Shown in pieces: positions 4,770-48,244 of a stretch of 64,000 bases of DNA. The notes under the pieces were generated by a model. The model did no database searches. It had not been told where the DNA came from and worked only from the letters and a program-made list of their open reading frames with translations. Source of the stretch: Escherichia coli. GTDB taxonomy: Bacteria; Pseudomonadota; Gammaproteobacteria; Enterobacterales; Enterobacteriaceae. The stretch is from the NCBI RefSeq assembly GCF_016026235.1, contig NZ_CP065613.1, one strand, 5' to 3'. How positions within the stretch are numbered: position 1 is the first letter of the stretch; each line of letters begins with the position of its first letter. The position numbers and the translations under genes were made by a program.

Positions 4770-5954
4770 ATGCAAAAAACGGCTACCACTCCATCAAAAA
4801 TACTTGATCTCACTGCCGCGGCATTTTTACTTGTCGCCTTTCTGACGGGTATTGCGGGCGCTCTTCAGACTCCTACCCTAAGTATATTCCTCGCAGATGA
4901 ACTGAAAGCCCGTCCTATAATGGTAGGTTTTTTCTTCACCGGTAGCGCTATTATGGGAATTCTGGTCAGTCAATTTCTGGCAAGGCACTCCGATAAACAA
5001 GGCGACCGTAAATTACTGATTCTGCTATGTTGCTTATTTGGAGTGCTGGCCTGCACGCTTTTTGCGTGGAATCGCAACTACTTCATTCTGCTCTCAACGG
5101 GCGTACTTCTGAGTAGTTTTGCTTCCACCGCAAACCCGCAAATGTTCGCCCTCGCCCGTGAACACGCCGATAGAACAGGCCGTGAGACGGTCATGTTCAG
5201 TACATTTTTACGTGCTCAGATCTCGCTTGCCTGGGTTATCGGGCCACCGCTCGCTTATGAACTGGCAATGGGATTTAGTTTTAAAGTGATGTATCTCACC
5301 GCTGCCATCGCATTTGTTGTTTGCGGGCTGATAGTCTGGTTGTTTTTGCCATCAATACAAAGAAATATTCCTGTCGTTACCCAACCCGTAGAAATTTTAC
5401 CCTCCATCCATAGAAAGCGAGATACGCGGCTACTTTTTGTGGTTTGTTCAATGATGTGGGCGGCGAATAATCTCTACATGATAAATATGCCGCTATTTAT
5501 TATTGATGAACTGCATCTAACCGATAAACTGGCTGGAGAAATGATTGGTATCGCTGCCGGTCTGGAAATTCCGATGATGTTAATCGCAGGCTATTACATG
5601 AAACGTATTGGCAAGCGACTATTAATGCTCATTGCTATCGTGAGTGGAATGTGTTTTTACGCCAGCGTACTCATGGCGACGACTCCGGCGGTTGAGCTGG
5701 AATTGCAAATTCTTAATGCCATCTTCCTTGGTATTCTCTGTGGTATCGGCATGCTTTATTTTCAGGACTTGATGCCTGAAAAAATAGGCTCTGCGACAAC
5801 GTTATATGCAAATACTTCACGCGTCGGCTGGATTATCGCCGGCTCTGTTGACGGAATTATGGTTGAAATCTGGAGCTACCATGCGTTGTTCTGGCTGGCG
5901 ATAGGGATGTTGGGTATTGCGATGATTTGCCTGCTGTTTATTAAAGATATTTAG
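4770..5954 (+). CDS. setC: sugar efflux transporter C (MFS)
   Basis: 394-aa multi-pass membrane protein; recognised as SetC. Confidence 0.85.
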   Translation: MQKTATTPSKILDLTAAAFLLVAFLTGIAGALQTPTLSIFLADELKARPIMVGFFFTGSAIMGILVSQFLARHSDKQGDRKLLILLCCLFGVLACTLFAWNRNYFILLSTGVLLSSFASTANPQMFALAREHADRTGRETVMFSTFLRAQISLAWVIGPPLAYELAMGFSFKVMYLTAAIAFVVCGLIVWLFLPSIQRNIPVVTQPVEILPSIHRKRDTRLLFVVCSMMWAANNLYMINMPLFIIDELHLTDKLAGEMIGIAAGLEIPMMLIAGYYMKRIGKRLLMLIAIVSGMCFYASVLMATTPAVELELQILNAIFLGILCGIGMLYFQDLMPEKIGSATTLYANTSRVGWIIAGSVDGIMVEIWSYHALFWLAIGMLGIAMICLLFIKDI

Positions 5955-8365: not shown

Positions 8366-9556
8366 TCAGGATTTCTTCATTTTCACCTTTGCAGTAACCA
8401 ACAATGCAGTCAGCAACATCAATGTGCCGGACAACATCAACGGCGAAGTCAGACCAATATTATCCAGCGCATAACCGCCGATTGCCGCACCACAGGTATT
8501 AGCAAGCTGAATAACCGCCACCTGAATAGACCCGGCTTTTTCTGCCTGATCGGCCAGCGAGCGGGTGATCCACGTTGACCAGCCGACGGGAACCAATGCA
8601 AAAGTTAGCCCCCAGATAATCGCCACGCCGGTAGCAACGATTTTATCGCTTCCCCACAACGTCAGTACCAACGCACTCACAGCCAGTATTAACGGCGCGC
8701 CTGCTAAGGCCAGTTTTACCGAACGTTTAAGAATGAACGACGAAAGCGACGTACCAATAAAGCTGGCGATACCAAAACTCAACAGCACCAGCGTTAAGCC
8801 ATCCACGCCGAATCCCGCCAGGTTCATATACACCGGGCGAATATACGTGAAGAAAGCAAACTGCCCGGCGAAAGACATGAAGATGGCGATCATCCCTGCC
8901 ATCACACCCGGACGTTGTAATAAGCGGAAAGTATTTTGTTTCTGATGCGAGGGTTCGCCTGGCAGCGAAGGCAATGATTTGATAATCCAGAAAATACACA
9001 ACACGCCCATCACCGCCGCCGCATTAAAGACATTGCGCCAACCGATAAGCTCGCCTAAAAAACTGCCCAACGGCGCGGCAATCACCAGCGCAATAGAAAC
9101 CGCGCCGAAGATCACCGACAGCGCCTTCGGCACCGTACGCGGCGGTACCAGACGCATGGTCAGCGACGCCGACATCGCCCAGAACCCGCCCAGCGCCAGC
9201 CCCAGACAGGCACGACCGATTAAAAGCAAACTGAATGAGTTAGCAAAGGAAACCAGCAAACAGGAGAGCGTCAGCAAAACGGCAAATAAAATAACAACGT
9301 AGCGGCGGTCAGTAGCCTGAATTGTCTGGGTAATAAACAAACTGGCAAACATTGCCACAAAGGCGGTCACGGTCACCGATTGCCCGGCAACCCCTTCCGA
9401 AATGCCTAAATCCTGGGCCATTGGCGTCAACAAACTGACGGGCAAAAACTCAACGATAATCAGACAGGCGACGCAAAACGCCACCGAGAAAACGGCTGAC
9501 CAGTTCGGTCGGGTGATGGCATCCGCGCCGCGGTTTTCGGCAATAAATTCACTCAT
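8366..9556 (-). CDS. nepI: purine ribonucleoside efflux pump (MFS)
   Basis: Track ORF is 438 aa; trimmed to [15 protein letters not shown]... giving 396 aa, the length I recall for NepI. Confidence 0.85.
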
Positions 9557-9783
9557 GGTGTTACCCGTGGCATGTTTCAGGGGAAAAGCCGACCACTTTA
9601 ACATTGAAATGTGTGACGCATTTAACGTTTTTGCAACTTTTACGGTGTTGTGGGAAAAGTTCGAGGCTGCTCGAAGAAACAAAAATCATAGGGCAAGCTG
9701 ATATGCATTTTCGCGATTGGGTTGGGAATAAGGGATAAAGTATTGCACTTGGTGATATACTTTAATAACAGGACCTCAACGAT

Positions 9784-10143
9784 ATGCGCGTGTTTAAAAC
9801 CAAATGGTTTGCAAGGGAAGCCAGGTCTCATGCAATAACAGATGAAGAGTTGTGCCGGGCCATTTTAGAAACGGAGCAAGGTAAAGCTGATGCACTTGGT
9901 GGTGGCGTTTTTAAAAAGCGCCTTCACCAAAATCGTGAGCGTGCAATTATTCTGGCAAAAGGGGGAAGCAATTGGTTTTACACGTTTTTATATGCAAAAC
10001 AGGATATGTCGAACATCAATAGTCAGGAACTGGCTGGGTTTCGTGAACTTGCAAAGCATTATGCCTTCCTGACGAAAGCCCAGCTAACAGCAATGATTAA
10101 CACTAAAGAACTGACAGAGATCTGCTATGACTGCAAAAACTAA
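9784..10143 (+). CDS. putative type II toxin, RelE/ParE superfamily (HigB-2-like)
   Basis: 119-aa basic protein; overlaps the downstream HTH gene by 17 nt (ATGACTGCAAAAACTAA). Family assignment is from architecture and recalled resemblance, not a search. Confidence 0.55.
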   Translation: MRVFKTKWFAREARSHAITDEELCRAILETEQGKADALGGGVFKKRLHQNRERAIILAKGGSNWFYTFLYAKQDMSNINSQELAGFRELAKHYAFLTKAQLTAMINTKELTEICYDCKN

Positions 10144-10450
10144 ATTTAAAAGTCCTGCATTTGAGGCTATTCACAGCGCAGCGGCTGGATTGTCCAGCGT
10201 CGATGCTATTTCTGCCGAAACAATGCGTACTTTTGACAAAGCCTGCCTGACCAGCGTGCAAGACTTACAACCTGTTGAGATAAAAGCACTGCGGGAAAAA
10301 TTAAAAGTGAGTCAGCCCGTCTTCGCTCACTATCTCAATACCAGCGTTTCAACTGTACAAAAATGGGAAAGTGGCGCTAAACGCCCCAATGGCATTTCAT
10401 TAAAACTGCTCAGCATTGTGCAAAAACACGGGCTGGATGTGCTGCTGTAA
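10127..10450 (+). CDS. putative antitoxin, helix-turn-helix (Xre-like) DNA-binding protein
   Basis: 107 aa with a C-terminal HTH-like segment (...SQPVFAHYLNTSVSTVQKWESGAKRP...); translationally coupled to the upstream toxin-like gene. Confidence 0.55.
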   Translation: MTAKTKFKSPAFEAIHSAAAGLSSVDAISAETMRTFDKACLTSVQDLQPVEIKALREKLKVSQPVFAHYLNTSVSTVQKWESGAKRPNGISLKLLSIVQKHGLDVLL

Positions 10451-10491
10451 ATAGAACGTAGATAATGCGTCACCTACTGTCAGTTCCGATA

Positions 10492-10562
10492 CCGGATGCG
10501 GCGTGAACGTCTTATCCACCCACCAGCTCAGGCGCGGTCTGTAGGCTGATAAGACGAAGCGG
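10492..10562. repeat. pair of REP-like palindromic units (BIME-like)
   Basis: CCGGATGCGGCGTGAACGTCTTATCC and GTAGGCTGATAAGACGAAGCGG in opposite orientation; resemble E. coli REP consensus. Confidence 0.5.
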
Positions 10563-10564
10563 TT

Positions 10565-11017
10565 TTAATGCAGCCAGTGAACGCCCTCGGCAGGCTGAAA
10601 GAATGCGTTATAGCGCATCTGAAAAGCATTAATATCCTGCATTTCAGGTTCAGTTTCGCGCAGAAAACCCAGCGCCAGCCTGACCTGAGCATCGGTAATC
10701 GGCGCGGCAAGGCGGGCTTTTTGTAAAATCCGATGCCATTGCAGCAGGTTCTGTTCGCTACCATCGACAATGACAATTTGCCAGATGAGCAACACCTGCG
10801 CGGCGTTTTGCAGGTGCGACTCATCCGGACGATGCAAATAACGTAAAAATTCGTCACCAGCTGACTTTCCCATTTGATCGACCATCGACTCCACGGGTAC
10901 GACATCGATATTCAGCCGATCGCTGAGACGGCGAATCGCTTTTCTGGCCCCGGATGTCAGCACCCGAAAACCAACCACAAACACTACCGCCAGCGTGGCG
11001 AGCATTATCCAGATCAT
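10565..11017 (-). CDS. yicN: DUF1198-type membrane protein
   Basis: Track ORF is 185 aa; trimmed to MIWIMLATLAVVFVV... (150 aa). Start choice is uncertain. Confidence 0.7.
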   Translation of the reverse strand: MIWIMLATLAVVFVVGFRVLTSGARKAIRRLSDRLNIDVVPVESMVDQMGKSAGDEFLRYLHRPDESHLQNAAQVLLIWQIVIVDGSEQNLLQWHRILQKARLAAPITDAQVRLALGFLRETEPEMQDINAFQMRYNAFFQPAEGVHWLH

Positions 11018-48146: not shown

Positions 48147-48244
48147 GCCGGATGCGGCGTGAACGCCTTATCCGGCCTACAAAAACATGCAAATTCAATA
48201 TATTGCAGGAGTCTCGTAGGCCTGATAAGCGTAGCGCAACAGGC
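48147..48244. repeat. two REP elements in inverted orientation (BIME)
   Basis: GCCGGATGCGGCGTGAACGCCTTATCCGGCCTAC and GTAGGCCTGATAAGCGTAGCGCAACAGGC. Confidence 0.65.

Follow-up and report, generated by a model that had tools for sequence, protein, structure and literature searches.

The window analysed here, a stretch of 64,000 nucleotides of Escherichia coli DNA, carries two small overlapping genes between nepI and yicN that encode a probable toxin-antitoxin (TA) pair. The toxin gene (9784..10143, plus strand, 360 nt) starts with ATG and specifies a 119-aa protein of the Pfam PF06296 / HigB-2 type within the RelE/ParE superfamily. The antitoxin gene (10127..10450, plus strand, 324 nt) also starts with ATG, and specifies a 107-aa protein with an Xre-type helix-turn-helix (HTH) domain at its C-terminus. 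The stop region of the first gene and the start of the second share 17 nt (10127..10143, plus strand), an arrangement in which translational coupling is presumed. The reading frames of 119 and 107 aa and their 17-nt overlap are as reported in the preliminary description of this DNA. Genes of the same 360 and 324 nt, again with a 17-nt overlap, are found in Salmonella, Klebsiella and Edwardsiella, and this recurrence indicates that the overlap is conserved and is not a product of chance. In a 99.9%-identical genome RefSeq labels the first frame 'type II toxin-antitoxin system RelE/ParE family toxin' and the second 'helix-turn-helix domain-containing protein', and places the toxin start at GTG 9790, 6 nt downstream of the ATG at 9784. 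The latter is the conserved toxin start, with MR[VI]FKT following from it in all relatives. With the toxin named by RefSeq and the Salmonella locus listed in the literature, the pair is an ordinary feature of an already known kind. Its immediate neighbours are only nepI (8366-9556) and yicN (10565-11017), both on the minus strand according to the RefSeq annotation of the 99.9%-identical genome.

The spacer between the antitoxin gene and yicN contains a REP pair (10490..10562), which had likewise been recognised to the right of the genes. Its 26-nt unit, CCGGATGCGGCGTGAACGYCTTATCC, stands at 10492-10517 and again at 48148-48173, where no second copy (0) would be expected by chance in the window, and an inverted-repeat scan places its inverted partner at 10541-10556. 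The element has the composition of a REP pair, that is, a repeated unit and an inverted partner in intergenic DNA; the match of this region to the REP-derived naRNA4 family is below threshold. The REP element is present in 5383 E. coli genomes with or without the toxin-antitoxin pair, in occupied and empty alleles alike, and marks the right-hand boundary of the indel described below.

Family and predicted fold of the two proteins

The toxin matches Pfam PF06296 ('RelE') with an E-value of 9.8e-42 over residues 1-113, covering model positions 1-120 of 120, and this HMM search bears out the proposal that the first frame encodes a RelE/ParE-superfamily toxin. The same Pfam family is matched by V. 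cholerae HigB-2 (VcHigB2; E 3.3e-8, model positions 8-96), for which the query sequence was confirmed to be identical to PDB chain 5ja9_C. According to a 2025 review, the members of PF06296, HigB-2 among them, are mRNases that depend on the ribosome, and their genes stand in toxin-first order. PF06296 is the sole Pfam family reported for the toxin, with no match to PF09907 or PF05015. The earlier assignment to a HigB/HigA-type, toxin-first module is thus upheld in gene order and superfamily, with the refinement that the family is HigB-2/HigA-2 and not that of Rts1-type HigB. E. coli K-12 HigB/HigA (YgjN/YgjM) and Rts1 HigBA are likewise toxin-first systems with an Xre-type antitoxin and a toxin of RelE/ParE fold, but they belong to other Pfam families (PF09907, PF05015) and have a lower Foldseek rank, with a TM of about 0.3. 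HigBA2 of A. baumannii was considered as the closest tested relative and set aside, as its paper assigns it to the GP49-domain family and not to PF06296.

Relatives of the toxin are numerous, with approximately 850 cluster representatives (50% identity) matching it at E below 0.001. No NCBIfam model matches the toxin, the PADLOC-DB defence models gave 0 families, and searches of PDB sequences with phmmer and with a 48-sequence profile brought no match for it, so that the toxin is tied to HigB2 by comparison of folds only and not by sequence search of the PDB. An AF2 model of the toxin, built on its relatives (pLDDT 93.4, pTM 0.86), has the topology beta-alpha-alpha-beta4, with two further helices and a last strand at its end, and predicts a RelE/BECR fold in which two N-terminal helices pack on an antiparallel beta-sheet. 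When this model was compared with the PDB by Foldseek, VcHigB2 chains made up nine of the eleven best matches (probability 0.99-1.0, TM 0.44-0.63, approximately 20% identity), and the next were HigB and RelE; the E-values for the model were only approximately 2e-3. In a profile-sequence alignment with a low hhalign probability (13%), toxin residues K44, R46, R53, Y70 and K72 stand opposite K49, R51, R64, Y82 and K84 of VcHigB2, and the five columns are invariant between the toxin and ToxP of Coxiella. Across 48 toxin relatives, conservation reaches 90% or more at four of the five (K44, R46, R53 and K72), and position 70 is occupied by either Y or F. In VcHigB2, alanine replacement of R51, R64, Y82 and K84 has been reported to lower activity 170- to 3000-fold. 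From these alignments, K44, R46, R53, Y70 and K72 are the predicted catalytic residues of the toxin.

The RelE/ParE superfamily fold is shared by mRNA endonucleases and by ParE-like gyrase poisons, and ParE structures are present among the distant Foldseek matches of the toxin model (rank 36). We nevertheless regard it as very improbable that the toxin poisons gyrase instead of cleaving mRNA. Its best structural matches, HigB2, HigB and RelE, are all mRNases, the RelE-like catalytic set of basic residues and a tyrosine is retained, PF06296 is listed as ribosome-dependent in the review cited above, and the related ToxP inhibits cell-free translation.

Residues 52-96 of the second protein match the HTH_3 domain (E 1.2e-7), with a weaker match to the HTH portion of MqsA, and among PDB entries the protein is closest to V. 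cholerae HigA-2 (5jaa_A; E 9e-10, residues 46-102), in agreement with the C-terminal Xre-type HTH that had been ascribed to it. It matches PHROG 2104 over its full length (E 1.9e-26), and shares 55% identity with AntitoxP of Coxiella over 104 residues. With this domain at the C-terminus and its gene directly downstream of that of the toxin, the protein is predicted to be an antitoxin of the HigA-2 type. Membership of the MqsA or NadS families was considered and rejected, since the curated cut-offs were not reached (41.0 bits against 61.8 for MqsA, TIGR03830; 41.3 bits against 60 for NadS, NF041265) and the HTH part alone matches in both cases. The single cysteine of the protein also argues against an MqsA-type zinc protein, as MqsA has an N-terminal CxxC...CxxC zinc module. 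Searches of PADLOC-DB returned generic HTH matches only. The N-terminal segment of approximately 45 residues is presumed to neutralise the toxin, while by analogy residues ~46-102, comprising the Xre-type HTH, would serve in DNA binding and dimerisation. In an AF2 model of the toxin and antitoxin fused by a linker, made from a paired alignment of 35 naturally paired sequences, antitoxin residues 10-24 and 30-40 are helical (pLDDT 89-95; pTM of the whole 0.68). A helical N-terminus of this kind may fit a structured segment that binds the toxin.

Distribution in E. coli and other Enterobacteriaceae

The 787-bp core of the locus was used to survey 5426 complete E. coli genomes. The pair is carried by 1716 of these, or about a third, including O157:H7, O145:H28 and SMS-3-5, in each case on the chromosome at this site, in one copy and in the same orientation, with 97.5-100% identity and with at least 80% of the two-gene segment present in every carrier. 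An empty junction is found in 3667 genomes, including MG1655 and O104:H4 HUSEC2011, and occupied and empty genomes together account for all 5383 that match the region. The claims that the pair is missing from K-12 and is strain-variable content in E. coli are both upheld by this survey. Pairwise alignment of the nepI-yicN region to a K-12-derived genome delimits the variable segment to 839 bp (9651..10489), in place of which K-12-like genomes have a filler of 41 bp, the sequence of which did not differ among the five empty genomes inspected. An allele in HS-02 with 78.8% identity and a 'frameshifted toxin' was considered as a decaying intermediate and rejected, since its long homopolymer runs are of the kind that assembly errors typically produce.

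Outside E. coli, the orthologous Salmonella pair STM3777/STM3778 lies divergently beside nepI, with the same gene lengths and overlap. In K. pneumoniae the pair is also beside nepI and a yicN fragment stands on the far side, and the pair is again beside nepI in K. oxytoca, in K. indica and in the non-coli Escherichia E69 and E1V33. The far side is occupied by yicN in K. oxytoca, K. indica, the Escherichia genomes and one Salmonella place; elsewhere in Salmonella the downstream neighbour varies, and can be a GIY-YIG gene or PTS genes. Relative to the window, NepI is 87% identical in Salmonella and 79% in Klebsiella, the antitoxin 81% and 79%, and the toxin 70% and 65%, so that all three fall in species order. 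Within Escherichia both genes have a dN/dS of 0.07-0.14, and are under strong purifying selection. Between genera the synonymous sites of the TA genes are saturated (nepI dS is ~1.3), which puts the age of the copies at no less than that of the genera.

The preliminary description held that the pair had been inserted between nepI and yicN. This polarity is probably wrong, and the pair is more likely an old resident beside nepI in the Enterobacteriaceae, lost by one deletion from the K-12-like lineage, than a new insertion. Ancestral presence followed by deletion is suggested by the same nepI-toxin-antitoxin(-yicN) order in Salmonella, Klebsiella and other Escherichia, and a single ancestral deletion by the one identical 41-bp filler in all empty sites examined. 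The filler itself may include a remnant of the toxin gene. Its comparison with the 52 bp replaced gave no significant homology, 154 of 2000 shuffles scoring as well (p ~0.08), and its right half matches toxin codons 29-34 with all three mismatches synonymous (60 of 3000 shuffles). The match is suggestive of a remnant; the assignment is ambiguous because the occupied allele has an internal imperfect repeat (9690-9702 versus 9879-9891).

Modules of this family do move. Relatives are common on plasmids. Close ones, with approximately 70% toxin identity, occupy other genomic sites in Erwinia, Pectobacterium, Edwardsiella, Serratia and Yersinia, among other genera; these near-identical modules form a tight cross-genus cluster away from nepI, and the Edwardsiella pair adjoins an integrase fragment and an IS5 transposase. 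This cluster and the Edwardsiella setting indicate that a mobile variant of the module exists. The nepI-linked copies were also not monophyletic in a neighbour-joining tree (0 of 200 bootstraps, in a tree whose root is unreliable owing to a truncated outgroup toxin), and some horizontal replacement is therefore possible. These observations would be in keeping with a mobile TA cassette having entered the nepI-yicN spacer in some E. coli lineages recently, by horizontal transfer, but we consider this unlikely. The E. coli pair does not have the form of a mobile island or cassette: no direct repeats flank the ends of the segment, no integrase was seen at the pair, and all 1716 carriers have it at one site, in one orientation and in near-uniform sequence. 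The same site is moreover used in other Escherichia, in three Klebsiella species and in Salmonella, and both the saturation of synonymous sites between genera and the shared filler of the empty alleles are at odds with recent arrival.

In Salmonella, the exact toxin protein is indexed in approximately 38,000 blocks of an assembly collection. The pair is accordingly very widespread in Salmonella, in contrast to E. coli, in which a minority of genomes carry it.

Upstream DNA and proposed mode of action

An inverted-repeat scan found an imperfect palindrome, TAAAGTATTGCAC-TTG-GTGATATACTTTA, at 9736..9764, with a core GCAC-N3-GTG at 9745-9754. It ends 19 nt before the toxin ATG and is a candidate operator. 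Its right arm is overlapped by a candidate extended -10 element, TGATATACT (TGn + TATACT; 9753..9761, plus strand), that was read by eye, and a Shine-Dalgarno-like AGGA (9770..9773, plus strand) stands 10 nt before the toxin ATG. When the upstream regions of 23 enterobacterial relatives were aligned, the motif (T)AGCAC-N3-GTGCTATA(G/C)T recurred in over 20 Enterobacterales loci, spaced from the start codon by the same distance each time, with the right arm coinciding with an extended -10 box (TGnTATAGT/TATACT), which in relatives reads TGCTATAGT or TGCTATACT; an ACAGGA ribosome-binding site is kept in all of the enterobacterial relatives. The toxP promoter of Coxiella (PtoxP) has a similar motif, TCAC-N3-GTGATATAGT. 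A strict two-hexamer sigma-70 scan and a terminator scan of the locus gave no sites, and because of the former we infer the promoter from these conserved elements. The centre of the Salmonella palindrome, CACCTGGTG, is the sole CCWGG of the nepI-toxin spacer in nine Salmonella genomes. According to a 2026 preprint, an unmethylated CCWGG lies upstream of ten S. Typhimurium genes, of which nepI and STM3777 are two. If the listed site is the one at the palindrome centre, its unmethylated state would fit a protein residing on the operator in vivo.

We consider it probable that the pair is a chromosomal type II TA operon of the HigB-2/HigA-2 type, ancestral at this site and lost once, which acts by a mechanism whose steps are drawn from V. 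cholerae HigBA2 and Coxiella ToxP/AntitoxP. By this analogy, the 119-aa toxin would enter the ribosomal A site and cleave translating mRNA by means of K44, R46, R53, Y70 and K72. The antitoxin would be translated, in a coupled manner, from the overlapping downstream frame; its N-terminal segment would wrap and neutralise the toxin, and it would dimerise through the C-terminal Xre HTH domain. Alone or in complex, it would then bind the palindrome over the extended -10 box and repress the operon, and a fall in antitoxin level would leave free toxin to arrest translation.

V. cholerae HigB-2/HigA-2 (VCA0468/0469; PDB 5JAA, 5JA8, 8A0X) shares with the E. coli pair the PF06296 family, the toxin-first order, the closest solved fold and the five active-site residues, and its HigA-2 also has a C-terminal Xre HTH and an N-terminal segment of approximately 45 residues. 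It is set apart by the low toxin identity given above, by its location in the superintegron in contrast to the fixed core-genome site in E. coli, and by the N-terminus of its antitoxin, which has a helix and a strand where two helices are predicted for E. coli. Residues 80-115 of the E. coli toxin (PF06296 positions 97-120) form an extra helix-helix-strand in the model that is absent from VcHigB2, and the beta2-beta3 loop of the E. coli toxin is short, unlike that of VcHigB2, in which replacement of this loop lowered activity 120-fold. ToxP/AntitoxP of the Coxiella burnetii plasmid QpH1 (CBUA0028/CBUA0027) has the same gene order, overlapping genes and a similar upstream motif, with 31% identity for the toxin and 55% for the antitoxin. 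In experiments, ToxP inhibited growth when overexpressed, an effect that co-expressed AntitoxP relieved, and it blocked translation in a cell-free system; AntitoxP was able to bind ToxP as well as the promoter. The E. coli pair is chromosomal, whereas that of Coxiella is carried on a plasmid, in whose maintenance it serves, and ToxP carries a long basic GKGKRGG loop where that of the E. coli toxin is short, the beta2-beta3 loop of the enterobacterial subgroup being six residues shorter than that of ToxP.

We found no experimental work on the E. coli pair in the literature. The sole functional mention found of its Salmonella orthologue is in a paper since retracted, which lists STM3777/STM3778 as a RelE-superfamily TA locus and places STM3777 among toxins not strongly toxic in E. 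coli. Such weak toxicity, if taken at face value, would agree with an attenuated or domesticated module, in which the toxin is little active and the HTH protein is mainly a transcription factor, possibly acting on the divergent nepI, which encodes a purine nucleoside efflux pump. The short beta2-beta3 loop points the same way, as does the higher conservation of the antitoxin than of the toxin (81% versus 70% in Salmonella, 55% versus 31% in Coxiella). Linkage to nepI is kept in Escherichia, Salmonella and Klebsiella despite a differing other flank, which is unusual for a mobile TA module, and nepI and STM3777 each have an upstream CCWGG listed as unmethylated. Domestication is nonetheless rather unlikely in our assessment. 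All five catalytic residues are retained, and the dN/dS of the toxin gene (0.07-0.14) implies that selection acts on the toxin itself. Among E. coli genomes, 68% lack the pair and retain nepI together with the conserved blocks upstream of it, which indicates that nepI expression is independent of the pair, and the palindrome lies some 180 bp from the nepI start.

There is a slim chance that the antitoxin or the TA complex tunes the NepI efflux pump from the shared intergenic region, and that the loss in K-12-like strains rewired this control; the module, resident beside nepI since before the split of Escherichia, Salmonella and Klebsiella, would in that case have been co-opted into local regulation. 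As MG1655 is a natural knockout, toxicity, phage defence and an effect on nepI are all easily testable.

The preferred reading, that of an ancestral TA operon, is of limited significance, but it would make the locus a clean example of a type II TA system as a long-term chromosomal resident rather than a hopping cassette, with a fixed position across genera, strong purifying selection and one loss within E. coli. The pair is of mild interest because its linkage to nepI is unusually stable from genus to genus, and because it belongs to an enterobacterial PF06296 subgroup for which a search of the literature brought up no solved structure or functional study. As a separate observation, the toxins of this subgroup combine a short beta2-beta3 loop with the extra C-terminal helix-helix-strand.

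Toxin start codon and upstream elements

In RefSeq (PGAP) the toxin is annotated as a 117-aa protein with a GTG start at window 9790, a start that is probably two codons too short. The alternative ATG at 9784, which yields a 119-aa product beginning MRVFKT, coincides with position 1 of the Pfam model and is kept in Salmonella, Klebsiella and Coxiella, as well as in all enterobacterial relatives.

It would fit shielding by a bound protein that a 2026 preprint, in a gene-level list, reports unmethylated CCWGG upstream of genes including nepI and STM3777, the Salmonella toxin orthologue adjoining nepI. The nepI-toxin spacer of Salmonella contains a single Dcm site, a CCTGG which lies at the centre of the operator-like palindrome (4964-4968 in Salmonella locus L004; position 1464 in the Salmonella loci L131-L138). 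The 11-nt core of the candidate operator, TGCACTTGGTG (window 9744-9754), is repeated exactly at 9891-9901 within the toxin gene, 147 bp downstream of the first copy and occupying codons 36-40. This intragenic copy could be a second, weak binding site, and about 0.1 exact repeats of this kind are expected by chance over the region; these codons also encode conserved ALGGG, and the repeat could be a coincidence forced by that coding sequence.

The blocks directly upstream of nepI (window 9557-9650), TAACATT...ATGTGA...TTAACGTTTTnGCAACT, are common to E. coli, Salmonella (L004) and Klebsiella (L005), and are also kept in the K-12-like empty alleles. These blocks are likely to be promoter or regulatory elements of nepI that are independent of the toxin-antitoxin pair.

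Empty and apparently divergent alleles in E. coli

Part of the 41-bp filler at the K-12-like empty site (L002 3960-4000) may be what remains of a toxin allele that has diverged. In a comparison with window 9868-9891, its nucleotides 21-39, GAAACGGAACAGGGCAAAG, align in frame with toxin codons 29-34 with three mismatches, all of them at synonymous third positions, and 60 of 3000 shuffles reached that score. This reading is ambiguous because window 9690-9702 and 9879-9891 themselves form an imperfect direct repeat.

We also considered E. coli HS-02 (NZ_CP172818.1) as carrying a decayed allele, its segment at comparison locus L130, 2355-3333, having 78.8% identity to the window and a toxin annotated as frameshifted. 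This was rejected because the segment contains long homopolymer runs of A, C and G that worsen along its length, most likely reflecting a local assembly error.

Probable mobile variant and genomic surroundings of the module

Near-identical copies of the module are present in distant Enterobacterales, namely Pectobacterium, Edwardsiella, Serratia, Lonsdalea, Tenebrionibacter, Pluralibacter and Yersinia (comparison loci L027, L030, L044, L049, L064, L073, L081, L089 and L123, among others). None of these adjoins nepI, and together they appear to be a variant that has been mobile recently. In Edwardsiella ictaluri the pair has an integrase fragment and an IS5 transposase as neighbours, and Erwinia mallotivora carries two copies (L042 and L043) about 17 kb apart.

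Within Salmonella (L131-L138), the gene 3' of the antitoxin differs by genome, being a GIY-YIG (LEM-3-like) nuclease, PTS/HPr genes or yicN (DUF1198), so in this genus the right side of the module is variable and the nepI side is fixed.

Elsewhere in the window, the 26-nt REP unit has a second exact copy at 48148-48173. The closest RefSeq genome, E. coli FDAARGOS_943, has an IS1A between nlpA and yicS (L001 1422-2119); the window has no IS1A at this position, where the gap is only about 220 bp.
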